DNA of 64,000 bases from Bacteroidaceae bacterium (GTDB lineage Bacteria > Bacteroidota > Bacteroidia > Bacteroidales > Barnesiellaceae_A): NCBI GenBank assembly GCA_017555825.1, contig JAFZFQ010000018.1, positions 8,359 to 72,358 of the forward strand, given 5' to 3'. The translations under genes were made by a program, and so were the position numbers. A model generated the notes under the pieces. That model ran no database searches. It saw nothing but the letters and a program-made list of their open reading frames with translations, and was not told the origin of the DNA. Shown in pieces: positions 5,147 through 63,882 of this stretch (positions within the stretch are counted from its first letter, which is position 1; every line of letters begins with the position of its first letter).

Positions 5147-7720
5147 TTACTTTTGTACGGCAACCTTGCTCACGCTATTGCCACAGCGCACAAGGTAAAT
5201 ACCCGATGTAGCAGGGCTATAGCTTGTTACATCGCCATCAAGTGCAATAGTTGCCACTGCAACACCTTGCATGTTATACACGGTAGCAGTTGCGTTATCG
5301 GCCTTTATGTATATACGGCCATTGGCGCTATACACATCGGCATTGGCAACAACACTCTCTACAGCACCCTTGTCGTCGGCTTTTACATTTATGACGTTCG
5401 ACCAGCGACTTGTTCCATCGGCTGTTACAGCACATACTTTATAGCGATACAGACCCTCATGTATAGGTGTCTCTACCTCTGTTACAGTATAGTGAGTGTC
5501 GGTTATACCCTCAATAGTGCGACTCTCGGTGATGCTCACTACATTCGACATCTCTTTTGCCTTGCTCACACGAGCCTTGCCCATGGTTGCTTCTCTCTCA
5601 ATACCGTTGTTGACGGTGAAGTTGTCAATAAAGATGCGTCGGTTGGCCTCAAGTGTAATTGAAACTTCGTCACCACCATGTTCATAAGCAATGCGCACTT
5701 CGCGGCTTTCGCCACTGGGCAGTTGCGACATATCTATATCGCACGATGCCGATGTTGCACCGTCTACTCTTATTGTCAGTACACCCGACTCGGCTGCCTT
5801 GTTGTAGGCATCGGCTGTAAAGCTCACTGTAAATTGCTTCTCCGTTTTAAACTTCGGAGTTGTGATATCGCCGGGATACTTGCTACTACCCAATTTCATC
5901 TTACCATTGCTGCAGAATACCTTCGAGCCACTCCATCCGGGGGTCATAGTATAGTCGTCGAGCGACGACGATATATCAAGGTCGGAACTCTCGGTAAACT
6001 TGTCGAAGTTCTCTTCAAAGGCAATAGCCGGAGCATCCGACTCCTCGATACGTTCTACATACAAGGTGTAGCTTATGGCTTCGTCTACTTTCGACCAGTA
6101 GGCTGTAAATTGGCTTGTGCTTATTTCGCCTGCCGATGTGGCAACAGGTGCCTCTACGGCTGCACCTTTACCGCCCATAAAGTCAAATGTGGTTACACCA
6201 TCGGCATAGTTGATATTGGTGATGGGCTTACCGGTAATGGTTGTATTGTATACCTTCATTTTGGGCGATGACGAGTCGGTGAGCGTGTTGTTTCCTTTGT
6301 AGGGGAACAAGTCGCCTTCCAAGTCGTATGTGCTCCAACGGTTGTCGGCAGGAATGAGCTTAAATCGTTGTCTTGACGGTGTGTCGTTCGGACCGTTGTG
6401 ATCCCACGCTCTCTTGTCATAGTCTACGGCTACTACCATCATGCCTTCGGCGGGCAATCCAAAGTCCCAACCCTCTTTCTTACGTGTTTCGAGTGTGATG
6501 TATTGGTTTTCATCGGTCGAGCTTATTCTATAAGCTGCGCTCTTGTCGCTATCCAAGAAGGGCATGGTGATTGTTGTAGGGTCGGTGAGTTCGTTCAACT
6601 CCAACCATCCGCAGTAGGCGCGCTCATAGGCGTTGTAGCCAATGGGTATATATCCGTCGCCGGCATAGCAACCGGCGTCCATAACGCTCCATGCGTCCAT
6701 ACCCATACCTCCCGAGTAGTCTATATCATACCAGTCGGGCAAGCCGAGTGTGTGGCTGTATTCGTGGCAGAATGTACCGATACCGTCGGGCTTAGTTCCC
6801 GATGAGTTGGCGAGCTCCGACGAGCAGGCATAAGCATCAAGTTTCACGCCATCAATCTCCACAGTGCGTTGTGCTCCTTGGTAGATATACCATGCATGAG
6901 GCCATATAGCATCTTCGTCTACACCACCTATATTCTCGCCATAGCCGGCATATATGGCATACACGAGGTCTACCCAGCCGTCTTTGTTCAAGTCATAGTC
7001 GGCCATGTTTACAAGTCCGTTTTTGCTGGCTATCTCGCATGCTTCCGACACCATCTCGTCGGGGTGTGCGTCATTGCCGTAGCGGTCGTTTCCGCCGTAA
7101 TACGACATATCCCTGCTCAGTGTTATGGGGCCTATTACGTCAAAGTCGGGTTTGAATTGACCATAACTTTGAGCGATAAAATAGTCGCGAGCCGAACCTA
7201 TCGAGCCATACTTGTCGGTGTAGCCCTCCTTGTTCATCATGTTATATACATTCTCTTGCGAGATCTTGAAAGCGTAGTCTTGAAACTCTACAAGGAGGAT
7301 GAGACCTCTCACTTTACCGTCGCTATCGGCTGTTTGACCAGCTTGTTGCATAGGAGCACGACGGCTCTTGATGTCGTTGTTCTTGCTTATGCGACGTGTT
7401 TGGTGTGTATTTCTGTGTTGCATGGCAATACTCTCTCGGCTGGCTATCTCGCCGGTGAAGGCGTCGCCTACTTTCACATTGCTTGCAACAAGGTTGTTTT
7501 GCTTGTCGAGTGTAGTATAACGGTAGAAACCATCTTCACACTTGGTTACGGGTGTGCCGTCTTCGGTTGTGTAGAAATGGTAAAATTCGTCACCACACAA
7601 GCGCAAGGTTATCACGCTTCCGTCGGGCTGTGTATAGGTTGTCACAGCTTTTCTCACGGGAGCAGCCGTGGCACATGTCAGTGCCATGGCTGCTATCAGT
7701 GTGTAAAAGATTCTTTTCAT
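5147..7720 (-). CDS. M6 family (immune inhibitor A-like) metalloprotease with T9SS C-terminal sorting domain
   Basis: 857 aa with a signal peptide. Zinc motif HEYSHTLGLPDWYD (HExxH). The C-terminus ..ATVYNMQGVAVATI..GIYLVRCGNSVSKVAVQK is T9SS CTD-like. About 250 aa of extra beta-rich sequence lies between the protease and the CTD relative to its neighbour. Confidence 0.8.
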   Translation of the reverse strand: MKRIFYTLIAAMALTCATAAPVRKAVTTYTQPDGSVITLRLCGDEFYHFYTTEDGTPVTKCEDGFYRYTTLDKQNNLVASNVKVGDAFTGEIASRESIAMQHRNTHQTRRISKNNDIKSRRAPMQQAGQTADSDGKVRGLILLVEFQDYAFKISQENVYNMMNKEGYTDKYGSIGSARDYFIAQSYGQFKPDFDVIGPITLSRDMSYYGGNDRYGNDAHPDEMVSEACEIASKNGLVNMADYDLNKDGWVDLVYAIYAGYGENIGGVDEDAIWPHAWYIYQGAQRTVEIDGVKLDAYACSSELANSSGTKPDGIGTFCHEYSHTLGLPDWYDIDYSGGMGMDAWSVMDAGCYAGDGYIPIGYNAYERAYCGWLELNELTDPTTITMPFLDSDKSAAYRISSTDENQYITLETRKKEGWDFGLPAEGMMVVAVDYDKRAWDHNGPNDTPSRQRFKLIPADNRWSTYDLEGDLFPYKGNNTLTDSSSPKMKVYNTTITGKPITNINYADGVTTFDFMGGKGAAVEAPVATSAGEISTSQFTAYWSKVDEAISYTLYVERIEESDAPAIAFEENFDKFTESSDLDISSSLDDYTMTPGWSGSKVFCSNGKMKLGSSKYPGDITTPKFKTEKQFTVSFTADAYNKAAESGVLTIRVDGATSASCDIDMSQLPSGESREVRIAYEHGGDEVSITLEANRRIFIDNFTVNNGIEREATMGKARVSKAKEMSNVVSITESRTIEGITDTHYTVTEVETPIHEGLYRYKVCAVTADGTSRWSNVINVKADDKGAVESVVANADVYSANGRIYIKADNATATVYNMQGVAVATIALDGDVTSYSPATSGIYLVRCGNSVSKVAVQK

Positions 7721-7756
7721 GTTGTTATATTCCTATGGTATTATTCTGCGATTAAC

Positions 7757-9595
7757 TTATTGTACGCTCACTTTCTCACAAAGTTCGCCGCATTTCACTA
7801 CATATAGACCGCGACCGGCGGGGGTGTAGTGTGCCTTGCCATTCTCTACTTTTACAGTGGCTACGAGCATACCTTGTACGTTGTATACATACATGTCGCT
7901 TGCGTGGCTATTGCGCACAATAATTTCACTACCGTTGTAGTATACTGCACCATTCTCGGCCTCAACACCATTTACACTACCGGTACCACCCATAAAGTCA
8001 AATGACGAAATCTTGGTTGTGGCGTCAAATGCAATGTTTGTTACGGGCTTACCCTTGATAGTTGTCAAGTGTATCTTCATGTTGGGGTTGGTCGATTCGG
8101 TAAATGAGTTTTGACCACCATTGGGCCACAAGTCACCCTCAAACGAATCTACACTTATATCATTGTCGGCAGGTACAAATTGGAAGCGTTGGCGCTTCAC
8201 GGTTGCATTCACCGAGTTGCTTTGCATATCCCATGCATCGGCGTCATAATCTACACGGATGATGAGCATACCCTCGGTGGGGAGGTATGCGTCCCAACCC
8301 TCTTGCACACGTGTCTCGAAGGTAAAGTAGCGGTCGGTGTTGTTATTGGCTACTACCTTGTAGGCTGTGGCCGATGTTGCTACATTCTCCATTACGATGG
8401 TAGTAGGCTCGGTGAGCTCGGTAATGCTCATCCAGCCGCAGAACTCACGCTCGTAGGCGTTGTATCCGCAAGGAATGCGACCTCCGGCGTTGTGGCAACC
8501 TTGGTCCATAACACTCCATTTGTTCATACCGAAACCGCCATAACCCTTGGTGTCGTACCAGTCGGGCAAGCCGAGTGTGTGGCTAAACTCGTGACAGATA
8601 GCGCCGATACCATACAAGTCGGTACCTTCTACGCCGGCAAGCTCCGATGTACATGCGTAGGCATCTACCTTCACACCGTTATACTCTCGATTCTTGGCTG
8701 CTGTGGTTTGACCCACCCATGCAGCATGAGGCCATATCGTGTTTTTGGGAGCACCGCTACTCTCGGCATAGCCGGCGTATACCACAAACACAAGGTCTAC
8801 ATAACCGTCGCTATCGCAGTCGTAGTCGGCAAAGTTGCACAAGTTTTGCTCCGAAGCTACATCGCAAGCATGCAAAGGCAAATAATACACCTTCGAGCCG
8901 TCGTCTCCACCGCTCATGCCATCTTGAGGTGTGCCATAGTAGGCCTCATTCTCCGGCAAGGTTACAGGACCTATTACATCGAAAGTGGGCTCAAACTTGC
9001 CGAAGCTTTGCGACAAGAAGTAGTCGCGTGCCGAGCCTATTGCGCCCATATAATCGTTGCCCTCTTCATTCATCAAGGCCGAGATATTCTCTTTTGTGCC
9101 GTTCTCGCTGAATTTTACATCTTGAAACTCAGCAAGAATTACAAGACCGCGCACCTTGGTCACTTCGCCTTCGGCTGTAGCTTGAGCTATCTTGCGCATG
9201 GGCGCTCCTTCGGGACGCGATGCAATGCTCATTTGGGCTCGTTTTACCTCTGCGTTGCGACGTACGTGGTTTTTGATAGCTTCGGCATCTATTTGTTGCA
9301 CAGATTGCAACTCTTCGCTTGCCAATTGCTTAGTATCACGAGCAACGATATTGCTGGCTACGCATTGGTTGTCTTGCATTTGTGTGTAGCGGTAGAAGCC
9401 ATCTTCGCACAACTCCACGATCTTGCCGTCGAGTGTGGTCATGTAGCTTCCATACTCATCACCATGCAACACTACGGTAATGGTGCTGCCATCGGGCTGG
9501 GTTATAACACGAGGTGTGCTGTCGGCAGGCAATGCCATGCCTTGCATTGCTATGAACAAGGCTGCTGCTGCACTGAGTAATAGTCTCTTTTTCAT
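7757..9595 (-). CDS. M6 family (immune inhibitor A-like) metalloprotease with T9SS C-terminal sorting domain (tandem paralogue)
   Basis: 612 aa with a signal peptide. Zinc motif HEFSHTLGLPDWYD. The N-terminus (TQPDGSTITVVLHGDEYGSYMTT..CEDGFYRYT) is colinear with the downstream gene. C-terminus ..MYVYNVQGMLVATVKV..GLYVVKCGELCEKVSVQ. Confidence 0.8.
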   Translation of the reverse strand: MKKRLLLSAAAALFIAMQGMALPADSTPRVITQPDGSTITVVLHGDEYGSYMTTLDGKIVELCEDGFYRYTQMQDNQCVASNIVARDTKQLASEELQSVQQIDAEAIKNHVRRNAEVKRAQMSIASRPEGAPMRKIAQATAEGEVTKVRGLVILAEFQDVKFSENGTKENISALMNEEGNDYMGAIGSARDYFLSQSFGKFEPTFDVIGPVTLPENEAYYGTPQDGMSGGDDGSKVYYLPLHACDVASEQNLCNFADYDCDSDGYVDLVFVVYAGYAESSGAPKNTIWPHAAWVGQTTAAKNREYNGVKVDAYACTSELAGVEGTDLYGIGAICHEFSHTLGLPDWYDTKGYGGFGMNKWSVMDQGCHNAGGRIPCGYNAYEREFCGWMSITELTEPTTIVMENVATSATAYKVVANNNTDRYFTFETRVQEGWDAYLPTEGMLIIRVDYDADAWDMQSNSVNATVKRQRFQFVPADNDISVDSFEGDLWPNGGQNSFTESTNPNMKIHLTTIKGKPVTNIAFDATTKISSFDFMGGTGSVNGVEAENGAVYYNGSEIIVRNSHASDMYVYNVQGMLVATVKVENGKAHYTPAGRGLYVVKCGELCEKVSVQ

Positions 9596-9848: not shown

Positions 9849-10547
9849 TTATTCTTCCATAAACTCGATGCCCTCAAGCAACATGTCGCGCAAGGCTCTG
9901 CGGTCGAGTATATGTACCTCATTGATAGTATAATCGATGATTTTCTCTTGTTTCATTTCGGCAAGAGTGTTGAGCAATGCTGTGCGTTGCACACCAAAGT
10001 AGCTATACAGGTCGCGTTGGCGTGCATTGATGTGTATGTCGGTGGCATTGCGCGAGGTGAGGTTGAGTATCCAATAGGCCAATCGCTCGCGCAAGTCGCC
10101 ATTGCTTATCGACAATAGGCTCTCTTTGCTCTTCTGGCTACGGCGCGACAAGATATTGAGCATGTTTATCAAGAAAATAGGCTCATCTTGCATGAAACTC
10201 ATAAAGGTCGATTTGTCTATCTGCATCAAGCCCACCTGCCCCTCGGCATAGTAGTTGCCGGGATAGTGTGTGCTACGACCAAAGATGTGGTCGGGGGCAA
10301 TGATGTCGGGTGCATGCAACGTTTGTATGAGTCTTACTTTGCCATCATAGGTACTCATTTCGCATCGTATGCTTCCCGATAGCAAAAACTTCAAGTGCGT
10401 ACACGCGGTAGCACGTGATGCCACCTTCTCTCCATCTTCATACTTGAGAAAGTGAAAGCGTGTTTTTTCTACCAATTCCAGCAACTTGGCTCGGCTCACT
10501 CCTTGAAACAGAGGTAGCTGCATGAGTGTCTGATATATGTTTTCCAT
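9849..10547 (-). CDS. Crp/Fnr family transcriptional regulator
   Basis: A cNMP-binding-like N-terminus (LPLFQGVSRAKLLELVEKT..) is followed by a C-terminal HTH (..RDLYSYFGVQRTALLNTLAEMKQEKII). I prefer ATG 10547 (MENIYQTL..) over the track start 10634 because a TATTTTTG box sits at 10632-10639. Confidence 0.75.
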   Translation of the reverse strand: MENIYQTLMQLPLFQGVSRAKLLELVEKTRFHFLKYEDGEKVASRATACTHLKFLLSGSIRCEMSTYDGKVRLIQTLHAPDIIAPDHIFGRSTHYPGNYYAEGQVGLMQIDKSTFMSFMQDEPIFLINMLNILSRRSQKSKESLLSISNGDLRERLAYWILNLTSRNATDIHINARQRDLYSYFGVQRTALLNTLAEMKQEKIIDYTINEVHILDRRALRDMLLEGIEFMEE

Positions 10548-10631
10548 ATCTGTTCTTTTAGTATCTATTGTCGCTGTCTTGCACCTTGTTGTAGGTAGCG
10601 GGGTGCGCTCGTCGCAAGGCAACTCATTGCA

Positions 10632-10639
10632 CAAAAATA
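10632..10639 (-). promoter_or_regulatory. candidate Bacteroidetes -7 box (TAnnTTTG)
   Basis: Minus-strand TATTTTTG, 85 nt upstream of ATG 10547. Confidence 0.35.
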
Positions 10640-10776
10640 ATACTTAATTTTTACAATTGCCTATCCGATAAGAAAAAATAACTTTTATCGCCCATGCAGT
10701 GCTCAGTGTTCTCTTGCAACGCATAATTATGTGTAAAAAATCAAACAACTTTGTTCCATCTTCGCATACCTTTCAC

Positions 10777-10784
10777 TATCTTTG
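10777..10784 (+). promoter_or_regulatory. candidate Bacteroidetes -7 box (TAnnTTTG)
   Basis: TATCTTTG, 40 nt upstream of ATG 10824. Confidence 0.45.
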
Positions 10785-10823
10785 CAACCAAATTTATAAA
10801 ACCTATTTAATCCGATTTATTTT

Positions 10824-11444
10824 ATGGGAGAAGCAATGACTTTTCTGAAAGATTTTTTCAGCCATTTCTCTTTTGAAGAAACTATCAGTTCGTTTATCAT
10901 TATGTTTATGGTTATCGATATGGTAGGTCTCACGCCTATTATTATCGACATGCGTCAGAAGGGACGCGAAATCAACCCCACCAAGGCGGCATTGCTTTCG
11001 CTCATTATGTTCTTGGCTTTCCTTTTCTTGGGATCGTCTATATTGGGCTTATTCCATGTCGACGTGTGCTCATTTGCAATCGGTGGTTCTATTGTGCTCT
11101 TCCTCATGGCTGTCGAGATGGTGCTCGATATTGAGATTTTTCGCAATAATGGTCCCACGGGAGCCTCTACAATGGTACCTTTGGTATTTCCCCTCATTGC
11201 GGGTGCCGGCTCGTTCACAACATTGCTCTCGTTGCAATCAATGTATGGCTTGGTCAATATTCTCATAGGTTTGTTGCTCAACATCGTTATCGTGTATCTT
11301 GTGTTGCGCAATATGTATCTCTTGGAGCGCATCCTTGGTAAGAGTGGTGTGTATGTAACACGCAAGTTTTTCGGTGTTATGTTGTTGGCCGTTTCTATCA
11401 AGATGTTCCTCGACAACTTGGTACTTTTCATCGACCGCGTATAA
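10824..11444 (+). CDS. MarC family (UPF0056) integral membrane protein
   Basis: 206 aa with about 6 hydrophobic segments. Size and layout are typical of MarC/NAAT family proteins. ATG 10836 is an alternative start. Confidence 0.7.
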   Translation: MGEAMTFLKDFFSHFSFEETISSFIIMFMVIDMVGLTPIIIDMRQKGREINPTKAALLSLIMFLAFLFLGSSILGLFHVDVCSFAIGGSIVLFLMAVEMVLDIEIFRNNGPTGASTMVPLVFPLIAGAGSFTTLLSLQSMYGLVNILIGLLLNIVIVYLVLRNMYLLERILGKSGVYVTRKFFGVMLLAVSIKMFLDNLVLFIDRV

Positions 11445-11466
11445 GCAATGCTTACAAATAGTTACC

Positions 11467-11494
11467 AACGCCTCCTTTCGGGGGCGTTTTTTTT
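11467..11494 (+). terminator. rho-independent terminator after the MarC-family gene
   Basis: AACGCCTCC-TTTCG-GGGGCGTT followed by an 8-T run. Confidence 0.6.
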
Positions 11495-11587
11495 ATGGCT
11501 TTTTTTATATATATGTATATTTGCAATCGGTTGATATATAATAGGTTGTTGTCTCGCATTGATAAATTGCTAAATTTTCACCCTTTT

Positions 11588-11595
11588 TATATTTG
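11588..11595 (+). promoter_or_regulatory. candidate Bacteroidetes -7 box (TAnnTTTG)
   Basis: TATATTTG, 95 nt upstream of ATG 11690. A second identical box lies at 11516-11523. Confidence 0.35.
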
Positions 11596-11689
11596 TTTTT
11601 TATGTGTTTTATGTGTAAATTCGGGGCTGAATGTAAGCTACATGTATGTGTAGCATGTTGATTTAGTTAACCTGATTCTGTAAATAAAT

Positions 11690-13633
11690 ATGAGCTATCT
11701 TAAGTTTGACAAAAGGCTGATGATAAATCTCGAACAATCGTTGCGCAAAGAGTTGTTGCGCACCAACCGTTCGGGTGCTTATCACTGCACTACTATTGTC
11801 GATTGCAACACTCGCAAGCAACACGGTTTGTTGGTAATGCCTATACCCGAGTTTGACAACGAGAACTATGTGTTGCTTTCTACTCTTGACGAAACTGTTA
11901 TACAGCACGGAGCTCCCTTCAATCTTGGCTTGCACAAGTATCAAGGCGACTGCTTCAGTCCCAACGGACACAAGTATATCAGAGAGTTTAACTGCGATGA
12001 TACCATCAGCAAGACCTATCGCGTAGGTGGTGTTATTCTTACCAAAGAGAAGATTTTTGAGGAGCATCAAAACCGCATCCTCATCAAGTATACTCTCGTC
12101 GATGCACACTCTCCCACAACTTTGCAATTCCGTCCATTCCTCGCTTTCCGTCCTGTCAACGAGTTGTGTATGGAAAACGAAGTTATCGACAAGAGCTATG
12201 AAGAAGTGCCCAACGGTATCAGTTGCTGTCTATACAAGGGTTATCCTCGCTTGTACATGCAATGTAGCAAGAAACCTCAGTTTGTATATGACCCCCATTG
12301 GTACAAGGGCATTGAATATATCAAAGACCAAGAGCGCGGAGTGCCTTATACCGAAGACCTCTATGTGCCCGGATACTTTGAGTTGCCTATCAAAAAGGGC
12401 GAAAGCATTATATTTGCAGCCGGTGTCGAAGAGGCCAAGCCTCGCTCGCTTGCCCGAATATATCAAGAGGAGTACGAAAATCGCACCCCTCGCAACAGTT
12501 TCTTCAACTGTCTCAAAAACTCGGCTCAACAATTCTACCTCAAGCAAGGTCGCGACCTCTACATCCTGGCCGGCTATCCTTGGTTTGGTGTACGTGCCCG
12601 CGACCAATTCATCGCACTGCCCGGTTGCTCGCTGGCTATCGACGACATCAAGGCTTTCGAGTCTACAATGAAGACTGCCGAGCGCGCCCTGCGCAACTTT
12701 ATGAAAGACGGCTCTCAAGACGCCATGATACGCGAGATAGAGATGCCCGACGTGCCCCTATGGGCTATATGGACTATACAGCAATATGCTCGCGAGTTGG
12801 GTACTAAGGCTTGCTACGATAAGTATGGCAAGCTCGTAGCCGACATCCTCACATACATCATCAAAGGTGGTCATCCCAATATGGTAGTTCACCCCAACGG
12901 CTTGGTATATTCAAATGGCCGCGACCGCATCATTTCGTGGATGAACAGCCGTCTCAACGGCAAGCCTGTCAACCCCCGCAGTGGTTATCTTGTTGAGTTC
13001 AATGCTCTGTGGTACAACGCACTGCGATTTGCAAGCAATATGTTTGCCGAGCATGACGACAACGCGACTCGCGTAGAGCAATGGCAAGCCTTGGCCGACA
13101 AGGTTCAAGAGGTATTTGGTCCTACATTCCTCAACGACTATGGCTATCTATACGACTATGTAGATGGTACAATGACCGATTGGAGTGTGCGTCCCAATAT
13201 GCTCATAGCCATTTCGCTCGAATATTCGCCCCTCGACCGCCGTCAGCGCAAAGCAATACTCGATATAGTTACCAAAGAGCTACTCACCCCCAAGGGTATA
13301 CGTTCGCTCAGTCCTAAGAGCTGGGGCTATCGTCCTTGGTATACAGGCTCGCCCGAAGACCGTGCTTTGGCACAACACCAAGGCCCCGCTCGTCCCTGGC
13401 TCATGGGTGTATATGCCGATGCCTACTTGCGCATCTTCGGCATGAGTGGTGTAGCATTTATCGAGCGTATGCTCATCGGCTACGAAGACGACCTCTCCGA
13501 CAAGTGTATAGGTTCACTCTCTGAGATGTTCGATGGCAATCCTCCCTACACAGCTCGTGGTGCTATCAGCGCTGCCAAAAACGTGGGCGAAGTATTGCGC
13601 GTGTTACATTCATTGAAAAAATATAATTTGTAA
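11690..13633 (+). CDS. glycogen debranching enzyme family protein (amylo-alpha-1,6-glucosidase, GDE_N/GDE_C type)
   Basis: 647 aa. The N-terminus (MSYLKFDK..LLRTNRSGAY..T.VDCNTRKQHGLLV) and the (alpha/alpha)6-like C-terminus match bacterial GDE proteins. It is the first gene of a GDE-GT4-GH57 cluster. Confidence 0.8.
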   Translation: MSYLKFDKRLMINLEQSLRKELLRTNRSGAYHCTTIVDCNTRKQHGLLVMPIPEFDNENYVLLSTLDETVIQHGAPFNLGLHKYQGDCFSPNGHKYIREFNCDDTISKTYRVGGVILTKEKIFEEHQNRILIKYTLVDAHSPTTLQFRPFLAFRPVNELCMENEVIDKSYEEVPNGISCCLYKGYPRLYMQCSKKPQFVYDPHWYKGIEYIKDQERGVPYTEDLYVPGYFELPIKKGESIIFAAGVEEAKPRSLARIYQEEYENRTPRNSFFNCLKNSAQQFYLKQGRDLYILAGYPWFGVRARDQFIALPGCSLAIDDIKAFESTMKTAERALRNFMKDGSQDAMIREIEMPDVPLWAIWTIQQYARELGTKACYDKYGKLVADILTYIIKGGHPNMVVHPNGLVYSNGRDRIISWMNSRLNGKPVNPRSGYLVEFNALWYNALRFASNMFAEHDDNATRVEQWQALADKVQEVFGPTFLNDYGYLYDYVDGTMTDWSVRPNMLIAISLEYSPLDRRQRKAILDIVTKELLTPKGIRSLSPKSWGYRPWYTGSPEDRALAQHQGPARPWLMGVYADAYLRIFGMSGVAFIERMLIGYEDDLSDKCIGSLSEMFDGNPPYTARGAISAAKNVGEVLRVLHSLKKYNL

Positions 13634-31994: not shown

Positions 31995-32055
31995 GGGTGT
32001 TTACAAATTGTCGTTATGGTTACACTCTTTATGCCATATAACAATTTTTGCTTGC

Positions 32056-32063
32056 GCAAAGTT
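32056..32063 (-). promoter_or_regulatory. candidate Bacteroidetes -7 box (TAnnTTTG)
   Basis: Minus-strand TAACTTTG, 62 nt upstream of ATG 31994. Confidence 0.4.
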
Positions 32064-32308
32064 AGCATTTATATTCATTCTTGTGCTATAGATTTATCAA
32101 AAATATCATAACCTATGTGCTATTAATCGGCTCAGCACACATACGAAAATTACTTGAGCCATCTTTCTCTTTTCGCCGAGGGTACATAGCGGCGCGTGCA
32201 ACCGAGTAGTGATGAGTAAGTTGGCTACTTCAATTCAAAATCATCCTATCGCAACATTTAGCCTTGCATCGTAGCTTCCTTTGTGCTCGTAATAAACTAT
32301 AAATAACT

Positions 32309-34261
32309 ATGAATACAATTGATTATCGTACCTTTAATCGCTCTAATCTCATGCCCAATCAGCCCGACAAAGCCCATGCTTCAACATGCGATTTTCATCG
32401 TCGCGACATCGATATTCTCGACGAGGCGCGCATGGCGTGGGAGGCTATTGCCGACTTCCGCACGCGTCGCGCTCGCAGTCGCGACTATACCTTTGGCAAG
32501 CAGTGGGGCGACCCCATATTGCTACCCGATGGGCGTGCCGTTTCTGAGGAGCAATACTTGCGTGAGCAGGGAAAAATACCGCTCAAAAACAATATGATAC
32601 GACAACTTGTCAAGAGCGTTTTGGGTCAATTTCGTTCTGCGCAGACCGAGCCTCTCTGTGTGGCTCGCGATAGAAGCGAGCAGCAATTGGGCGATCTCAT
32701 GACGACTGTCATGCAGTATGCCTATCAGCACAATCGCCTATACGAGCTCGATAGTCGCACGCTCGAAGAGTTCCTTATTTCGGGCGCATGCTTCCACAAG
32801 GTCGGATATGGCTCTCGTCGTGGCAAGACCGATGTGTGGGTGCAGGCGGTATCTCCATCGCGCATATTCTTCAACAACATGGAGGATAGTCGTCTGTGGG
32901 ATTGTACTCTCATTGGCGAGTTGCACGACATGACACTATCCGATCTTCTTGCTCGTTTTGCTCGTGGCGACGAGAAGAAAATGCAACAACTGCGCAACAT
33001 ATATGCCAATGTCTCACAGGAGCAGATTTACCAGGCATTCGACACGCTCTCCTCTCGCACCCAAGACTCGCTCGATTTCTTTATTCCATCCTCGCCCGAT
33101 CGCTGTCGTGTTATCGAGGTGTGGAAGATGACTCACACGCCACGTCTTCGTTGTCATGATACGCTCTCGGGCGACTTCTACAAGGTCGATGCCTCTATGC
33201 AGTCGCACATCGACAAGCAGAACAAATTGCGCATTGAGCAAGCGGCTATTCAAGGAGTAGTGGCGAGCGAAGTGCCTCTTATCGAGACCGAGTGGTTTTT
33301 GGATGCGGTGTGGTATTATCGTTTCTTCTCGCCTATGGGCGATGTACTCGACGAGGGCGAGACGCCCTATTGGCACGGCGAGCATCCCTATACGCTACGC
33401 CTCTATCCGCTTTTCGATGGCGAGGTGCACTCTTTTGTCGAGGATATTATCGACCAGCAACGCTACATCAATCGCCTCATTACAATGGTCGACTTCATAA
33501 TGGGTAGCAGTGCCAAGGGTGTATTGCTCTTTCCCGAAGATCAGATTCCCGACGGCATGACCATCGACGACATTGCTGCCGAGTGGACTCGCTACAATGG
33601 TGTTATTCTCTTTCGCCCCAAGCCGGGTTGCCCCATGCCGCAACAAGTATCGGTCAATGCTACCAACGTTGGGGCCTACGAGTTGCTTTCGTTGCAGATG
33701 CGATTGCTCGAAGATATTTCGGGCGTGCACAGTGCTATGCAGGGCAAGAGTGTATCGGCCGGTACACCTGCTTCGCTCTACACTCAGCAGGTGCAATTTT
33801 CGGCTACCAATCTGCTCGATATTTTCGAGTCCTTCAAGACCTTTCGCGAGGAGCGCGACACCAAGGTGCTCAAGACCATACAGCAGTTTTACTCTGCGGC
33901 TCGCTATTCGCTCATAGTGGGCGAGGGTGGGGGTATGCTCTCCGACACTACCCCCGAGAAGGTGCGCAATACCGAGTTCGACCTCTCGATTGCCGAGTCG
34001 GCGGCTGCTCCGGCGTTCCGTCAGGCTTCCAACGATTTTCTATTGGCGCTCTTTCGCTCGGGACACATATCGCTCTCTACATTGCTCGAAACAGGTGCTT
34101 TCCCCTTTGCCGACAAGCTATTGCAACACCTCAATACCGAGCAACAACAGCAATTGCAACAGATGGCTACGCTCATGGCGGCAAGTAATTCACAACCACA
34201 CTCCGTTGACTCATCTCACGAGCTCGACGCTCAACAACAACCATCGCAAGCAGGGCAGTGA
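32309..34261 (+). CDS. phage portal (podovirus head-to-tail connector)-like protein, orphan
   Basis: 650 aa. The N-terminal ..RARSRDYTFGKQWGD.. is like the F..G.QW motif near portal N-termini. The central ..YPLFDGEVHSFVEDIIDQQRYINRLITMVDFIMGSSAKGVLLF.. reads, from my memory of that sequence, like the core of T7 gp8-type connectors. The C-terminal tail is Gln-rich and helical (NTEQQQQLQQMATLMAAS). No signal peptide. Needs HMM or structure confirmation. Confidence 0.55.
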   Translation: MNTIDYRTFNRSNLMPNQPDKAHASTCDFHRRDIDILDEARMAWEAIADFRTRRARSRDYTFGKQWGDPILLPDGRAVSEEQYLREQGKIPLKNNMIRQLVKSVLGQFRSAQTEPLCVARDRSEQQLGDLMTTVMQYAYQHNRLYELDSRTLEEFLISGACFHKVGYGSRRGKTDVWVQAVSPSRIFFNNMEDSRLWDCTLIGELHDMTLSDLLARFARGDEKKMQQLRNIYANVSQEQIYQAFDTLSSRTQDSLDFFIPSSPDRCRVIEVWKMTHTPRLRCHDTLSGDFYKVDASMQSHIDKQNKLRIEQAAIQGVVASEVPLIETEWFLDAVWYYRFFSPMGDVLDEGETPYWHGEHPYTLRLYPLFDGEVHSFVEDIIDQQRYINRLITMVDFIMGSSAKGVLLFPEDQIPDGMTIDDIAAEWTRYNGVILFRPKPGCPMPQQVSVNATNVGAYELLSLQMRLLEDISGVHSAMQGKSVSAGTPASLYTQQVQFSATNLLDIFESFKTFREERDTKVLKTIQQFYSAARYSLIVGEGGGMLSDTTPEKVRNTEFDLSIAESAAAPAFRQASNDFLLALFRSGHISLSTLLETGAFPFADKLLQHLNTEQQQQLQQMATLMAASNSQPHSVDSSHELDAQQQPSQAGQ

Positions 34262-34272
34262 CTTTTCTTTTT

Positions 34273-34306
34273 GTGGCGCAACTCTCTTGAATTGCGTCAC
34301 TTTTTT
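34273..34306 (+). terminator. rho-independent terminator after the portal-like gene
   Basis: GTGGCGCAA (34273-34281) / TTGCGTCAC (34292-34300, one G-U pair), followed by TTTTTT. Confidence 0.65.
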
Positions 34307-36721: not shown

Positions 36722-36765
36722 CCCTCACGCATCAGCACGCCCGATCTATATGCCAATAGGTAATC
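36722..36765. repeat. copy 1 of a 44-bp intergenic direct repeat
   Basis: CCCTCACGCATCAGCACGCCCG-AT-CTATATGCCAATAGGTAATC. Confidence 0.7.
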
Positions 36766-36805
36766 ATTTGCTCCACTGTCGCCTTGCGACTGAGGGGTTG
36801 AAATA

Positions 36806-36872
36806 CCCTCGTGCATCAGCACGCCCGTAGGGACGTACCACCGGTACGTCCGCTATATGCAGATAGGTAATC
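36806..36872. repeat. copy 2 of the repeat, carrying a 25-nt hairpin insertion
   Basis: CCCTCGTGCATCAGCACGCCCG and CTATATGCAGATAGGTAATC are separated by TAGGGACGTACCACCGGTACGTCCG. That insert has stem GGACGTACC (36831-36839) / GGTACGTCC (36843-36851). Confidence 0.7.
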
Positions 36873-54139: not shown

Positions 54140-57100
54140 ATGAAAAGGCTTTCACTATTTTTGGCATTTGCCTTCTGTATCGTGGTTGCTATGGTAGCGC
54201 AGAGTACCATTCAACTCACGACTTCACGTCCTGTGGGCGAAGAGTTTGTCATGACTCTATACTCTACATCGAGCAACGACCCCTTTACTATCGATTGGGG
54301 CGATGGCTCTAAGACTACTCACAATGTGTCGCCTACCGATATTCCCTATTTTCAACGCATTGCAGGTACACTCCGTGGCAATACACTCACCATTACAGGC
54401 AACATTGTTCACCTCACTGCCACCGAGCAAGCTATTACATCTGTCGAGATTGCCAATCAAACACACCTCAAAGAGCTCTGCTTGTCGCAAAACGAACTCT
54501 CGCACATAGCTTTCGTGGGCGATGCTGCTCCCTTGCAGTCATTGCAACTCAACAACAACCGGCTCACCAATAGCACCGAGAGCAATCCCACGCTGGGCCT
54601 TGAGGTTTTTGCTTCAACTCTCAGCACCCTCGATCTCTCCAACAACAACCTCATTTGCCTCAATATTCAAGAGCTGGTCAATCTCAAGGAGCTGTATATT
54701 AAGGACAACCCCTTGTTTACATCTATCTTCATTGCCATGCCCGAGGAGTCGCGCGACATCGAAAAAATCGATCTCTCTAATGGCGACCTCTCGCACTTCT
54801 ATCCCATATACATGCCCAAGCTCACCTCCTTGCACCTTGCCAACAATACGCTCATGGAGGACTTTGTTATCGACCACTACTATCCTGCGCTCAAATATCT
54901 CTCTATCAATGGCAACTACATCCCCGCTATCGATGTTACAGAGTGTGCCAAGTTGGAGCAGTTCGATTGTTCGCGCAACTACTTGACCAATCTCGATGTC
55001 TCGCAAAATGCGCAACTCACACAATTGCTCTGTTCGGCCAATCAACTTTCGGCTATCAACGTTTCCAACAACGTCATGCTCACTACCTTGTCGTGCGATA
55101 GCAACAACATTGCCAAGATCGACCTTTTGCAAAACAACAAGTTGCAATACATCAACGTGTCGAGCAACCCCATCTCTTTTATCGACCTTTCACAAGCCTA
55201 CAACCTGCGTCGTTTTGAGGCGGCTGCTACCTTGTGCGACTACTTCTATTTCAACCACGTCAATCCTGCCGGTCGTTTCGAGTATGTCGATGTGCGCGAC
55301 AACCCCAACCTCACTGCCGATGCGCTCAACTGCATGTACAAGACCATGCCCGTGCATCATGGTAGCTCCTACAGTGCCAACTTGCTCATAAGTGGCTCTA
55401 ATGGAGAGACCTCCGATACTTCATACCCCAACAGCACCGACATGGGTTGGAAAACCGATATTCAAGGCGACGGTACTGCCACCAATCACTTGGTCGACGT
55501 TACATTCGATGCAGTCAAGTCGGGCAATACAATCGACATTACAGGCACTTTTGGCGGTATCAATGCCGACCAATCTTATACCTTTGCCGAGTATACTACC
55601 GAGTTTGGTACTTTTGCTGTGGCTCAATGGGATACTCCTTATTATCAAAAGTTTAAAGAGGTTACCGACAAGGCCAATGTGGGTGTACCCATCGTTGTGT
55701 TTGCATTTCCCAAGGTGGGATACAAGTTCAAGAACATAGAGATTGACGGTCGCGTGGTAGAGAACAACACCTTTGTTATCAACCAAGCCGCCAATGTAAA
55801 GGTAAACTTTGCCGTTGAAGAAAACTCTATCACTTTCACTACTACCCAAGGCATTCCCTTGTCATTCCAACTTGGTGGACCCGACCTCAGCAATACAATT
55901 GAGATCGATTGGGGTAATGGTAGCCGTCAGCAATACACCATTCCTCAATATGCCGACTATACCATCGCCGGTGGTCGCATTGAGGGCACATCTATGGGCT
56001 CTACTGTTACCATTTACGGTAATGTTATATATGCCAACTTCGAGAGCGAACCCTACTTTGTGGGTTGGGACAACCAGATTACAGCCATCGACCTCTCGCA
56101 AAATACTTATCTCGAATATCTCGACCTCTATTGGAACCCTGTTCGCACCCTCAATCTTGCCGGCATGAGCCGTCTTGAGGTATTGGGTGTGAGTTACACC
56201 GCGCTCAAAGAGCTCAACTTGGCAGGCGCTTCCAACCTCTTGCAACTCGAATGTTATAGCGATGGTTACGGTTTTGAGGAAGACGGTATCGCATTGCTCT
56301 CGCAACTCGATATCTCTAAGACTCCCAAGTTGCGCTACCTCGATGCCAAGAACAACCGCCTCGAAACCATCAACTTTGCCTACAACAGCGACTTGAACTA
56401 TATCAATATTTCAAACAACAATATTTCCTATGTCGATGTTACCAACCTGCCTACTTTGTGGTATTTCATGGCGGCCGACAACGAGCTTACTCAACTCGAT
56501 TTGTCACAAAACATACAGTTGGTAGAGTTGGCTTTGAGCAACAACAACCTCACCGAACTCAATCTTTCTAATAACAATAGTATACAATTATTGTCTATTG
56601 AAAATAATGCTATCGCAACACTCGATTTGAGCGGTATGGCCAACCTTATGCAACTCAAAATAGGTGGCAACGGCCTCACTGCTTGTCAGCTCAACGACAT
56701 CTACTACTCATTGCCTCAATATCCCGAACTCACCCAAGAGGAGCAAGATGCCATAGCGGGCTATCCCTTGAATGTGGGTCAAGCCGGTGAAGCAACCCCC
56801 AACGACTCTTACGGTGCCGATGCTTCTATCGCTACTTCAAAGGGTTGGAGCATCAACATTGCCGGCAATGGCAATGGTTGCGAGACTGCCTATATCGACA
56901 TCGTTCCCTCTGAGAATGGCTCTATCCGCTTGTACGATGTTGACAATAACGAGATTTTATCGGGTACTACCACCCTGCGCAATAGTGACATCACTGTGGT
57001 CGCTACGCCTGCCGAGGGTTATGCCTACACCTCTGTTTTGCTGAACGATGTAGAGGAAGTCAAGGGCAACACATTCATGATTGGTGCCTACTGCCGTGTG

Positions 57101-57352
57101 CAAGGTCTCTTCAATAGCAACCAAGCAATCGACGACAATCTCTCTCGCACTACTCGCGTCTTTGCCACTCGCGGTGCTATACATGTCGAGGCTCACGAGC
57201 GCGTGATGGTTGCAGTATACACTATCGATGGTCGCTTGGTATATGAGACTGCCGTACTCGACAACGTCTCAATACCCACACCCTCGGGCATGTATATCGT
57301 GCGAGTTGTCGACAACAACCAAACCGAAACACACACCATAGCCGTGCAATAA
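54140..57352 (+). CDS. leucine-rich repeat surface protein with T9SS C-terminal sorting domain
   Basis: 1070 aa with a signal peptide. Two blocks of ~22-aa LRRs (L..LDLS.N.L..L) are each preceded by a ..DWG[DN]GS.. module. InlB-B-repeat-like segments are present. The C-terminus ..VAVYTIDGRLVYE..GMYIVRVVDNNQTETHTIAVQ is CTD-like. Confidence 0.8.
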   Translation: MKRLSLFLAFAFCIVVAMVAQSTIQLTTSRPVGEEFVMTLYSTSSNDPFTIDWGDGSKTTHNVSPTDIPYFQRIAGTLRGNTLTITGNIVHLTATEQAITSVEIANQTHLKELCLSQNELSHIAFVGDAAPLQSLQLNNNRLTNSTESNPTLGLEVFASTLSTLDLSNNNLICLNIQELVNLKELYIKDNPLFTSIFIAMPEESRDIEKIDLSNGDLSHFYPIYMPKLTSLHLANNTLMEDFVIDHYYPALKYLSINGNYIPAIDVTECAKLEQFDCSRNYLTNLDVSQNAQLTQLLCSANQLSAINVSNNVMLTTLSCDSNNIAKIDLLQNNKLQYINVSSNPISFIDLSQAYNLRRFEAAATLCDYFYFNHVNPAGRFEYVDVRDNPNLTADALNCMYKTMPVHHGSSYSANLLISGSNGETSDTSYPNSTDMGWKTDIQGDGTATNHLVDVTFDAVKSGNTIDITGTFGGINADQSYTFAEYTTEFGTFAVAQWDTPYYQKFKEVTDKANVGVPIVVFAFPKVGYKFKNIEIDGRVVENNTFVINQAANVKVNFAVEENSITFTTTQGIPLSFQLGGPDLSNTIEIDWGNGSRQQYTIPQYADYTIAGGRIEGTSMGSTVTIYGNVIYANFESEPYFVGWDNQITAIDLSQNTYLEYLDLYWNPVRTLNLAGMSRLEVLGVSYTALKELNLAGASNLLQLECYSDGYGFEEDGIALLSQLDISKTPKLRYLDAKNNRLETINFAYNSDLNYINISNNNISYVDVTNLPTLWYFMAADNELTQLDLSQNIQLVELALSNNNLTELNLSNNNSIQLLSIENNAIATLDLSGMANLMQLKIGGNGLTACQLNDIYYSLPQYPELTQEEQDAIAGYPLNVGQAGEATPNDSYGADASIATSKGWSINIAGNGNGCETAYIDIVPSENGSIRLYDVDNNEILSGTTTLRNSDITVVATPAEGYAYTSVLLNDVEEVKGNTFMIGAYCRVQGLFNSNQAIDDNLSRTTRVFATRGAIHVEAHERVMVAVYTIDGRLVYETAVLDNVSIPTPSGMYIVRVVDNNQTETHTIAVQ

Positions 57353-57375
57353 TCGGCTACTTAAACCACAATAAA

Positions 57376-57417
57376 ATAGGCTGCGCCCAAAGTTTCAGGG
57401 TGCAGCCTATTTTTTTT
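57376..57417. terminator. rho-independent terminator between convergent genes
   Basis: ATAGGCTGC (57376-84) / GCAGCCTAT (57402-10), followed by a 7-T run. Confidence 0.65.
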
Positions 57418-57462
57418 CTATAAGATCGAGAGTTGTACCTCTGTGGGTCGCTCTTTATAGCT

Positions 57463-58236
57463 CTACCACTCGGCTCTCTTAAATCGTCGCTTCAACATTA
57501 TGTCGTTTATATTCACGCCCTCGTCGAGGGTGTTCAGGTCTACATATCCATTTATACCCTCTACCACACCGCGATTGCTATATTGCCATATTGTACACTC
57601 ACGCTTGTCTTCGAGCGAGGGCGAGGGCTTGAATTGGTAGGCTCCATAGCGTGCTATCCACAAGATGTGGTCGTCAAATGAGCGTTGCAACAGGTAGTTA
57701 TAGAAGCGTTGGTGTGTGTAGATAATAGGACGCGTACCCCATTGTGCAAGTATCATTGATGAGAATTTCTCCAAGCTGTCGCATATCTGCTTGCTGGGCT
57801 TGCGACCTTTCTCTTCAATATCTACAACGGGTATGAGGTCTTGGGTAGAGAGGTCTACAAGGCTCATAAAGTTCTTGTATTGCACTGCTACAGGCACGTT
57901 GGGGTGGAAGTAGTGGTAGCTACCCACTGCAAGTCCTGCTCGGCGCGCTTGCTCTGTATTGTAGCGGTATAGCGAGTCTTTGTGTGATGAGCCTTCGGTG
58001 GCTTTGATGTAGACAAACTTGATGTTGGTCTCGCTACCTACACGATCCCAATCGATCTTGCCTTGATAGTGCGACACGTCGATACCCTGTTTGTCCCAAT
58101 CGCCACAGCATCCCAGATCATCGGGCTGTTGTTCTATGATGGTAAGTGCTATCACGCCTACGATTGTCATAGCCGATAGTGCCACCAAGAGTTTGCCCAA
58201 TGCGTTGAGGCGAAAGATTTTCTTTTCTCCTGTCAT
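57463..58236 (-). CDS. membrane-anchored GH25 muramidase (lysozyme)
   Basis: An N-terminal TM (LLVALSAMTIVGVIALTII) is followed by GIDVSHYQGKIDWDRV..FVYIKATEG, the GH25 signature. Confidence 0.85.
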   Translation of the reverse strand: MTGEKKIFRLNALGKLLVALSAMTIVGVIALTIIEQQPDDLGCCGDWDKQGIDVSHYQGKIDWDRVGSETNIKFVYIKATEGSSHKDSLYRYNTEQARRAGLAVGSYHYFHPNVPVAVQYKNFMSLVDLSTQDLIPVVDIEEKGRKPSKQICDSLEKFSSMILAQWGTRPIIYTHQRFYNYLLQRSFDDHILWIARYGAYQFKPSPSLEDKRECTIWQYSNRGVVEGINGYVDLNTLDEGVNINDIMLKRRFKRAEW

Positions 58237-58262
58237 TTTATTTCTACTGCCTTGCGGTTTAC

Positions 58263-58682
58263 TTATTTCTCTATTTCAATATATCGGCTCTCGTCGTCGG
58301 CTGTTTTGATGTGTACCGCAACTGCCTCGTCGGGTAGTATCTCGGCTATGTTTTCGGGCCATTCGATAAAGCACAGACTGCCACTGTCAAAGTAGTCTTG
58401 GCAACCCATATCGAGTGCCTCTACAATCTTATTGATGCGGTAGCAGTCAAAGTGATATATAGTGCTGCCATTGCCGGCAAGATACTCATTTACAATGGCA
58501 AATGTAGGACTGTTGATGACATCGGTTACACCCAGCTCCTCGCACACGGCCTTGATGAATGTGGTCTTTCCGGCGCCCATGTGGCCATAGAAGGCAAAGA
58601 TGGTGTCGTTGCCTATGTTGTCGATAAAGGTGCGTGCGGCTTGGTGTATGCGGTCGAGGCTCTCTATTTGTATTTGTATCAT
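58263..58682 (-). CDS. tsaE: tRNA threonylcarbamoyladenosine biosynthesis ATPase TsaE
   Basis: 139 aa. [10 protein letters not shown] Walker [11 protein letters not shown] and HFDCYR motifs. Confidence 0.9.
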
Positions 58683-58689
58683 AGTGTTG

Positions 58690-60234
58690 TTATTTGGCTG
58701 TGAGTGTTATCAGAGGAACCATCATCTCTTCGAGCGATATACCTCCGTGTTGGAAAGTGTCCTTATAGTAACTTACGTAGTAGTTGTAGTTGTTGGGGTA
58801 GGCAAAGAAGTCGCTGTTGGTAGCAAAGATATAGGTCGAGCTGATGTTGGGCGAGGGTAGGCCATAGAGCTTCGGATTCTTTATCTCGTATACCTGCTTG
58901 GGGTTGTAACTGAGTGACTTGCCTACTTTATAGCGCAAGTTGGTATTGGTATTTTTGTCGCCTATAACTTTGATAGGACTATCGACGTGTACCGTGCCGT
59001 GGTCGGTTGTGAGGATAATTTTGTATCCGCTCTCGGCTATCTTCTTAAAGAGGTCTATAGCCGATGAGTGGCGAAACCATGACTCGGTAAGCGAGCGATA
59101 GGCTGCCTCGGTCGAGGCGAGCTCGCGCATCATCTTCGACTCGGTGCGGGCATGTGATAGCATATCGATAAAGTTGAGTACGCACACATTCAACGGCTTG
59201 TCGGTAAAGCGCGAGAAGTTCTGCAAGAGCTTGTCTCCGTAGGCGTTTTCGTTGATTTTGTTGTAGGTAAACTCATAGTTCTTGCGGAAACGGTCGAGTT
59301 GTGTCTGTATGAGGGGTGCTTCGTTGAGGTTCTTGCCCTCTTCTTCGTCTTCGTCTACCCATAGGTCGGGAAACATCTCGGCTATTTTGTTGGGCATCAG
59401 ACCCGAGAAGATTGCGTTGCGGGCATATTGGGTTGCGGTGGGCAGTATGCTGCAATACATCTCTTCCTCGGCAGTAAAGTAGTTGCTGAGTAGGGGTTGT
59501 ATGATGCGCCATTGGTCGAGGCGGAAGTTATCGATGAGTATAAAGAAGAGCTTCTCGCCATTGTCCAGGGCAGGAAAAACGCGCTTCTTGAAGAGCTCGT
59601 GGCTCATCATGGGGTGGTCGTCGGTGGTTATCCAGCGCTCGTAGTTTTTCTTGATAAACTTGGCAAACGCGGCATTGGCTTCCACCTTCTGCATGCGCAA
59701 TAGGTCGTCCATATTGGTTGTCTCGGCATGCGATAGCTCAAGATCCCAATAAACGAGTTTGCGATATACTTCGTTCCAATCTTCCCAGGTAGATGAGTTG
59801 TTTATGAGCATACCTATGCGGCCAAACTCTTGTTGGTAGTTGCTCGTTGTCTCGTCCGATATAATCTCGCGACTATGCAAGTTCTTCTTGATAGAGAGAA
59901 ATATCTGGTTGGGATTGACGGGCTTGATGAGGTAATCGGCAATTTTGTTGCCTATGGCCTGGTTCATAATATCCTCTTCCTCACTCTTGGTTATCATGAC
60001 CACAGGTATCTCGGGGTGACGCTCTTTGATGTGGCTCAGGGTCTCCAGGCCACTCAAGCCGGGCATGTTCTCATCGAGAATGATGAGATCGTATTTCTCT
60101 TTTTCGCACGCATCGAGGGCATCGAGACCATTGGTCACGGTGGTGAGGTCATATCCCTTCTGTGTGAGAAAAAGTATGTGAGGCTTGAGCAAGTCTATCT
60201 CGTCATCGGCCCATAGTATCATCGGTTGTTTCAT
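58690..60234 (-). CDS. porX: response regulator with PglZ (alkaline-phosphatase-like) domain, PorX-type T9SS regulator
   Basis: 514 aa. A CheY receiver ([23 protein letters not shown]) is fused to a C-terminal PglZ domain (..TDHGTVHV..). The architecture, size and adjacency to a PorW/SprE-like gene fit PorX. Confidence 0.75.
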
Positions 60235-62890: not shown

Positions 62891-62941
62891 CGATTGGTAG
62901 AAGCGAGTCCAACCGGTGTTTTTGGTAGTATTGCACGACGA

Positions 62942-63004: not shown

Positions 63005-63032
63005 CTTTACATATAACGTTTTTTGTCGTGGT

Positions 63033-63869: not shown

Positions 63870-63882
63870 TGTTTGGTGGTGG

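Follow-up and report, generated by a model that had tools for sequence, protein, structure and literature searches.

A phage-type portal gene inherited among core genes of Barnesiellaceae and its probable partnership with a separated terminase gene

Results

A P22-family portal gene in the chromosome

The 64,000-nucleotide stretch of DNA analysed here (the window) is part of the genome of a Bacteroidaceae bacterium, which GTDB places in Barnesiellaceae_A (assembly GCA_017555825.1, contig JAFZFQ010000018.1, positions 8,359 to 72,358 of the forward strand). An open reading frame (ORF) on its plus strand, 32309–34261, begins with ATG and encodes a protein of 650 amino acid residues, which an original prediction, made from the sequence letters, had taken for a full-length podovirus-type portal. 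The ORF and the peptide strings quoted in that prediction are indeed present. We describe this gene together with phage-derived genes of the same and related chromosomes, among them the gene for the large terminase subunit (TerL), and ask how they may belong together.

Pfam assigned the portal ORF to a single family, P22_portal (PF16510), with a score of 133.2 bits against a cut-off of 26.1 (E = 1.4e-38), and residues 39–648 of the protein were aligned with positions 3–589 of the 594-position profile. The ORF also matched the ‘portal protein’ family PHROG_156 (1.3e-75) as well as the sequences of podophage portals in the PDB, the best of them at 3.9e-11. An AlphaFold (AF2) model, which is a monomer prediction only, was built from an alignment of 133 diverse homologues and had a predicted local distance difference test (pLDDT) score of 88 and a predicted template modelling (pTM) score of 0.83; it superseded an earlier run on a shallow alignment of 28 sequences, which had a pLDDT of 52 and gave uninformative template modelling (TM) scores. 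When the model was compared with the PDB using Foldseek, all of its best 50 matches (50/50) were podovirus portals, including those of Pan3, GP4, KHP30, Pam1, phicrAss001, P22, Sf6, N4, SU10 and DEV. The best match was the Pan3 portal (9vyf; E = 1e-23, TM 0.71 over 607 columns). This full-length structural match suggests that the protein has the complete fold of wing, stem, clip and crown. These results, taken together, establish the product of 32309–34261 as a genuine P22-family portal by both sequence and fold. The original prediction had also described its central segment as colinear with the T7 gp8-type connector core. This assignment was not borne out, as a Pfam search at E ≤ 10 returned P22_portal and no other portal or connector family, and the T7 portal was absent from the top 50 structural matches listed.

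Conservation within the portal is highest at residues 341–480, with a peak at 381–420, and the predicted stem helix and clip (around residues 376–420) have a mean conservation of 0.95 over 40 bacterial orthologues. The Gln-rich C-terminal tail (around residues 621–650), which had been listed as a portal-like feature, exists in the ORF but is the least conserved part of the protein. The GC content of the ORF is 0.527, compared with 0.491 ± 0.024, and its codon log-likelihood (z = -0.64) is host-like, in agreement with the codon style noted earlier as host-like or slightly richer in GC. In one Barnesiella genome (L013), a frame of 696 aa on the minus strand (9887–11974) runs antisense over the entire portal gene and exceeds the portal ORF in length; it is probably an effect of base composition.

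A divergent Omp85-family gene ends at 31994, leaving a gap of 314 bp to the portal gene. Within this gap, a promoter-like bipartite element, TATCGCA-N24-CCTTTG (32247–32283, plus strand), ends 25 nt 5′ of the portal ATG. Its TTTG part resembles the -7 box of Bacteroidota, a phylum for which a sigma-70 promoter scanner is uninformative, and an alignment of seven species has an invariant CTATCGCA and a common TTaCTTTG box upstream of the portal gene. The rest of the divergent intergenic region (31995–32246) holds a perfect TAACTTTG box of the -7 type for the Omp85-family gene (minus strand, 32064–32057) and, between the divergent promoter boxes, a stretch of about 110 nt (around 32120–32230), which the six related genomes of the same alignment lack. 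Directly past the portal stop codon, an intrinsic terminator on the plus strand (34273–34306) is composed of a 9-bp outer stem, a 2-bp inner stem and a U6 tract. The hairpin (34273–34300) with its U6 tract to 34306 has a folding energy of -15.3 kcal/mol (z = -7.5), and none of 200 shuffled sequences folded as well; a simple terminator scanner missed it owing to the outer loop of more than 8 nt. The AmiA-like gene downstream of the portal gene has a TATTTTTG box of its own. Because of the terminator at its 3′ end and this separate box, the portal gene can be regarded as monocistronic, as had been proposed on the basis of the same gap and the same terminator.

We scanned the 45 other likely genes of the window with Pfam, and the unannotated ones also with PHROGs. 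They were cellular or unannotated, and none of them was a gene for a terminase, a capsid or tail protein, an integrase or a repressor. The window contained no tRNA gene and no Rfam family, and the search for att-like flanking direct repeats in it yielded chance-level matches only. The picture of a portal gene set among housekeeping genes, in a window otherwise free of phage genes, att-like repeats and tRNA genes, was thus correct, its neighbours being cellular. A GH25 lysozyme and the AmiA-like amidase might be taken for products of phage lysis genes, a reading that we rejected because both genes are syntenic host genes. A prophage would be recognised by a contiguous block of phage genes with integrase and att sites that varies between strains; here no integrase, tRNA gene or flanking repeats were found, and the locus is conserved and syntenic across species.

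A terminase module 32 kb from the portal gene

The last part of the window (56644–64000) overlaps another contig (L054) over 7,357 bp with a single mismatch (99.99% identity), and this overlap anchors the contig to the window. Past the end of the window, the contig continues with the rest of a 138-aa gene, the genes for 5-enolpyruvylshikimate-3-phosphate (EPSP) synthase, SSB and ferritin, and then the TerL module. TerL is encoded on the minus strand at the window equivalent of about 66644–68629, with an overlapping 82-aa gene beside it. Divergently from TerL, F4 (181 aa), a 90-aa gene and F6 (722 aa) occupy the plus strand at the window equivalent of about 68991–72101. TerL lies 2.6 kb beyond the window end and 32 kb from the portal gene, with core host genes between them, and in a sister species the portal and TerL modules lie in the same order on one 68.9-kb scaffold. 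The presence of TerL, F4 and F6 on an overlapping contig, with the same promoter-like motif as the portal gene (see below), contradicts the description of the portal gene as an isolated orphan or as all that survives of the phage. Phage genes just beyond the locus had been named in advance as an observation that would tell against the call, and this was partly what we found, with the TerL module 2.6 kb past the window.

To find partner genes, we searched all loci with the proteins of Bacteroides phages and then with the bacterial versions; the sampled loci reach 10 kb either side of the gene. TerL was identified by its matches to PHROG_2 (2.7e-18) and to T4 gp17 (3.6e-11). Its Walker-A-like sequence KARQWGGST, the Walker B sequence HLSE, the sequence ESTANGT and the acidic residues of the nuclease are invariant and common to phage TerLs, and judging from these residues the enzyme appears to be catalytically intact. 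Neither Pfam nor PHROGs provided a significant annotation for F4, F5, F6 or the small proteins, and profile searches with F4, F6 and a gp26-like protein found in other lineages had no significant match among PDB sequences. A zinc-protease motif considered in F6 was dropped, as it reads HExxxH rather than HExxH.

The arrangement of these genes differs among lineages. In the basal clade (L017, L019, L022, L025 and L031), the order is gp26-like (minus), portal (plus), a few small genes, TerL (minus), F4, F5 and F6, the last three being of about 176, about 160 and about 650–790 aa, respectively, and the cluster is flanked by conserved host genes. Host genes separate the portal and TerL parts by 32 kb in this genome, by 12 kb in Coprobacter and by 0–5 kb in certain other lineages. 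In Coprobacter fastidiosus, where the two halves are about 12 kb apart, the genes between them encode a transporter and a TonB-dependent receptor as well as histidine kinases. Genomes of the Barnesiella viscericola type have F4, F5 and F6 downstream of the portal gene at a distance.

At one further locus (L053), TerL lies beside the genes for ribosomal protein L19 and a class II aminoacyl-tRNA synthetase, with F4 and F5 present. The place expected for F6 (7060–8541) is a 1.5-kb stretch without a called gene, into which a copy of the motif points, and this gap may reflect erosion of F6. Another TerL orthologue (L051, 10001–12037), 63% identical to the query TerL, stands alone on a 3.16-Mb contig, where it adjoins a DpnII-type restriction-modification system and a TonB-dependent receptor gene; neither a portal gene nor F4–F6 lies within 10 kb of it.

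The portal and TerL genes share a promoter-like motif

We searched for the strict pattern TAT[CA]GCA-N24-[ACT]CTTTG in 932 kb of DNA, consisting of the window and the bacterial loci. There were 15 matches, compared with about 0.25 in shuffled sequences. Immediately upstream of portal genes lay 12 of the 15, and the others were in the divergent TerL/F4 spacer of two loci (L048 and L049), on both strands; the pattern had no match elsewhere in the 932 kb. This genome has the motif at the portal gene, as described above, and two further copies in the TerL/F4 spacer. Clade variants of the motif (TATCACA, CTTCACA or TATGCCA-N24-NNTTTG) occur upstream of both the portal gene and F4 at three loci (L019, L031 and L043), and a clade-variant motif stands upstream of both the portal gene and TerL in Coprobacter. 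The portal gene and TerL/F4 therefore have a motif in common within each of four separate lineages, which suggests that these dispersed genes are co-regulated.

The 8-mer CTATCGCA on its own was over-represented in the window, with 11 occurrences against 2.45 expected, a number that none of 100 shuffled sequences reached. Its sites, which include 5129, 8811, 15495, 26479 and 32246, are mostly intragenic apart from the copy in the portal promoter. We rejected the 8-mer as a specific signal for this reason; it is the complete bipartite pattern alone that distinguishes the phage-derived genes.

The portal gene has been inherited vertically under purifying selection

A survey of one genome per species revealed 38 portal loci with 57–85% identity, almost all of which are labelled as Barnesiella, Coprobacter, ‘Porphyromonadaceae’ or Bacteroidales metagenome-assembled genomes. 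The order Omp85, portal, AmiA, aldehyde dehydrogenase and UvrD is kept in the closer relatives, that is, in the clade of the window. All portal ORFs that are not cut by contig ends are intact, except for one truncated copy in Muribaculaceae. With loci beyond these 38 included, the intact orthologues come from about 45 Barnesiellaceae genomes. The full-length bacterial portals form one clade with a phage portal, that of BS-TP4 (see below), as the outgroup, and the subclades match the groups defined by gene context. Viral contigs in IMG/VR contain relatives of the portal at 35% identity only, plus one fragment, and the bacterial portal clade therefore does not correspond to a virus group already known. 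The best portal representative in a library clustered at 50% identity was 47% identical.

The ratio of nonsynonymous to synonymous substitution rates (dN/dS) of the portal against its syntenic orthologues was 0.05–0.15, which is a rough estimate, since dS exceeds 1 and is saturated in most pairs. Its dN was similar to that of the Omp85 and DUF3822 neighbours and below that of AmiA. In an unsaturated pair (dS of about 0.3), dN/dS was 0.054 for the portal gene and 0.054 for a flanking host gene, with equal dS, and the values for TerL, gp26-like, F4, F5 and F6 were 0.060, 0.081, 0.095, 0.19 and 0.29, respectively. TerL, gp26-like and F4 are thus constrained like the portal in this pair, and F5 and F6 less so. 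The check on relatives proposed with the original prediction hence came out in its favour, the gene being intact at the same locus in the closer relatives with a low dN/dS. These results show that the portal gene is vertically inherited across Barnesiellaceae under long-term purifying selection. Intact ORFs, synteny and purifying selection, taken together, exclude a neutral remnant.

A truncated portal-like ORF of 450 aa with 40% identity (L038, 7668–9020) was observed in Muribaculaceae, on a 17.5-kb contig that had no TerL or capsid match. It may represent an independent, decaying copy.

The related phages encode a capsid protein that the bacterial loci lack

The closest phages to the bacterial genes are three Bacteroides phages of 64–68 kb, whose portals are 42–47% identical to that of the window. 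The temperate Bacteroides phage BS-TP4 (PQ571277) has a portal and a TerL that are 47% and 45% identical, respectively, to the bacterial proteins. BS-TP4 was detected in 31% of viromes (PMC12694917). F4 matched (2e-14) the BS-TP4 gene that runs across both ends of the sequence record. F6 matched residues 4129–4374 of gp3, a protein of 5,391 aa encoded directly upstream of the phage portal. The promoter-like motif was not found in the portal and TerL regions of BS-TP4 itself. The GenBank record of BS-TP4 is linearised inside the F4 homologue (L041, 1–312; L042, 24964–25275), so that this gene is split and partly annotated.

BS-TP4 gp11 is a major capsid protein (MCP) of the SU10 type (1.5e-29), and its gene lies three genes from that of TerL over a divergent junction (gp8–gp9 on the minus strand, gp10 and gp11 on the plus strand). 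A capsid hidden Markov model (HMM), for which the MCP of BS-TP4 and a distant IMG/VR contig (3.8e-9) served as positive controls, had no match in the roughly 0.93 Mb that surround the portal and TerL genes of about 45 genomes, nor in the 78.6 kb seen of this genome. A homology search with the MCP yielded 2,134 homologues, the top 120 of which, at 83–99% identity, were Bacteroides prophage capsids that saturated the search.

Discussion

We consider it rather probable that the genes described here make up a portal-terminase module of Barnesiellaceae that was domesticated long ago, is dispersed and is probably co-regulated. Judging from the gene content of the phages and of the bacterial loci, an ancestor would have taken up, from a Bacteroidales podophage resembling BS-TP4, the region near the portal gene, namely the portal, TerL with its small upstream partner, F4, F5, F6 as a fragment of gp3, and a structural protein of the gp26-like type. 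The genes for capsid, tail, lysis, replication and integration would then have been lost, and the remaining genes would have been passed on vertically under purifying selection while host genes were inserted between them. By homology, the portal may still form a 12-mer ring, and the stem and clip of the ring may dock the co-retained TerL; the clip is the docking site of the terminase or adaptor in established portal structures. With the ATPase and nuclease residues that TerL has kept, the pair could constitute a complex that cuts and translocates DNA, and the genes of the module might be switched on together via the shared promoter-like motif. The ring would act either within a capsid, encoded elsewhere or borrowed from an infecting relative, or without any capsid. 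Two histories had been offered for the portal gene at the outset, the last survivor of an eroded prophage and a domesticated protein. Intactness, synteny and constraint are in favour of domestication, and intactness, synteny and purifying selection speak against the last survivor.

It is a tentative possibility that the module is a capsid-less portal-terminase machine kept since the divergence of the family for a host function. Such a machine would comprise the portal ring and an active TerL, together with part of the giant injected protein of the phage and, in some lineages, a nozzle-like protein; it would be expressed from a dedicated promoter type and might serve in DNA export or import, in chromosome processing or in the takeover of incoming phage capsids.

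Several observations weigh against a domesticated portal-terminase module. Genomes of the B. viscericola type have no TerL within 10 kb of the portal gene, and one lineage has TerL without a portal gene within 10 kb on either side. The two proteins may accordingly not be obligate partners, or their genes may simply lie further apart. The gene set is not constant, as the 78.6 kb seen of this genome contain neither the gp26-like gene nor F5. Ring formation and the docking of TerL are argued from homology, and the motif, instead of attesting a regulon, could be a promoter that was inherited.

Other explanations share part of this evidence. The vertical, constrained, phage-derived genes scattered over several loci, as in RcGTA, would also fit a dispersed particle of the gene transfer agent (GTA) kind, a viriform with its head and tail genes elsewhere in the chromosome that packages host DNA; a common promoter motif suggestive of host-controlled co-expression and the intact catalytic residues of TerL are in line with it. 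We regard such a particle as somewhat unlikely, however, given that the capsid HMM was negative in both the 0.93 Mb from about 45 genomes and the 78.6 kb of this genome, that it was negative even in clusters still colinear with the phage, in which the MCP gene lies three genes from that of TerL, and that no tail genes were seen in the loci. To our knowledge, the known GTAs keep TerL, portal, protease and MCP together. The same lack of a capsid would suit a parasite of incoming capsids equipped with portal-vertex and packaging parts: the host portal, with or without TerL, would enter or nucleate BS-TP4-like procapsids during infection, poisoning their assembly or diverting packaging to host DNA. 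The source phage family is common in Bacteroidales, as seen from the number of MCP homologues and the virome detection cited above (PMC12694917), and F6 weakly matches a candidate defence model of PADLOC (LeoBC; 2e-4 for L039, 17168–19489, and 4e-5 for L052, 6058–8424), at values too weak to interpret. This hijacking of capsids nevertheless appears unlikely. The portal, TerL, F4, F5, gp26-like and the small proteins had no match in PADLOC-DB 2.0; the motif is missing at the phage portal and TerL genes, which gives no indication that a late activator of the phage would induce the host genes; no Barnesiellaceae phage with this capsid type was identified in this analysis; and the slow, housekeeping-like evolution of the portal and TerL would be unusual for genes in an arms race.

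A portal ring co-opted for a cellular role independent of TerL, such as an envelope-associated channel or scaffold, would account for the B. viscericola-type genomes that keep the portal without a nearby TerL, and the divergent neighbour of the portal gene encodes an outer-membrane β-barrel protein in two clades. We find this quite improbable, as a specific promoter motif is common to the portal gene and TerL/F4 in four lineages, the most conserved segment of the portal is the predicted stem and clip, the docking site in known portals, and the portal neighbours vary between clades. As for a functionless, decaying remnant of an eroded prophage, the location of the gene among host genes without integrase or att sites could be cited in its favour, and so could the erosion of members elsewhere, with the possible loss of F6 at L053 and the truncated Muribaculaceae portal. 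A remnant is nonetheless hardly credible in view of ORFs that are intact at every complete locus, a dN/dS of about 0.05–0.15 despite dS above 1, conservation of both the promoter motif and the terminator, synteny across species and host-like codon usage.

The domesticated module that we favour can be set beside several known systems. With P22-like portals (that of BS-TP4 and the structures of Pan3, 9vyf, GP4, 8jov, and P22 gp1), the portal described here shares the full-length homology, the fold and the conserved stem and clip. Unlike them, it is encoded in the chromosome among core genes, has descended vertically across a family and uses host-like codons, and it is not adjacent to a terminase and morphogenesis module, TerL being 32 kb away here and adjacent or near-adjacent in other lineages only. 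GTAs and viriforms, such as RcGTA, BaGTA of Bartonella, PBSX-like elements and FpGTA of Faecalibacterium (PMC12946183), are likewise fixed, constrained and sometimes split sets of phage genes under apparently common regulation. Known GTAs have retained the genes for capsid, protease and tail, which usually form a single main head-tail cluster, whereas the genes described here have no capsid or tail gene linked to them in any lineage. The literature that we searched contained no description of a GTA in Bacteroidota.

Domesticated defective prophages, as Bobay, Touchon and Rocha reportedly described in PNAS in 2014, are retained vertically with dN/dS well below 1, and both features recur here. 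The present case differs from them in being deeper (at the family level, with saturated dS), in comprising the packaging-vertex group only, in being interleaved with essential host genes and in having a promoter motif common to the separated pieces. Phage satellites (phage-inducible chromosomal islands, PICI; capsid-forming PICI, cfPICI; and P4) also have a partial set of morphogenesis genes, which could act only with parts supplied in trans. In contrast to them, the genes described here occupy a fixed position across species and are not mobile, and no integrase, replication module or att site was found in the window or the loci. In full-text searches of the literature, we came across no account of these genes as a set.

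Portal and terminase genes are hallmarks for calling prophages and for classifying tailed phages, and here they behave like core bacterial genes, with genes of the module near those for EPSP synthase, SSB, TsaE or rplS. Lone portal or terminase matches in Bacteroidales genomes need not, then, mark prophages. If the module is functional, the co-option of phage machines by bacteria, known from GTAs, tailocins, contractile injection systems and encapsulins, would extend to the packaging vertex, in an abundant gut family. If, moreover, it should act without a capsid, it would be the first case of a DNA-packaging motor of phage origin that has been domesticated and operates with no capsid of its own. 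The motif TATCGCA-N24-CTTTG and the culturable species Barnesiella viscericola and Coprobacter fastidiosus make the question testable.

Other features of the window

The cellular genes of the window include those for glycogen metabolism, aspartyl-tRNA synthetase, an NusG-like protein, nucleotide-sugar enzymes, an extracytoplasmic function (ECF) sigma factor, RsmD and DUF3822. The RecD-like helicase, Omp85, the AmiA-like amidase, aldehyde dehydrogenase, UvrD and a resistance-nodulation-division (RND) efflux pump are also encoded there, as are GDP-mannose/fucose enzymes, a PglZ-domain response regulator of the PorX type, TsaE, the GH25 protein and an ABC-3 permease. The gene for the PorX-type regulator (58690–60234, minus strand) adjoins that for TsaE, is 95% identical in the sister species and belongs to a block of conserved genes extending up to the TerL module. 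PorX-type regulators act in the regulation of type IX secretion. Finally, two pairs of direct repeats of 20–22 nt, 84 and 107 nt apart and 90–91% identical, occur at 36722–36872, in the unusually long spacer of 550 bp between the aldehyde dehydrogenase and UvrD genes.

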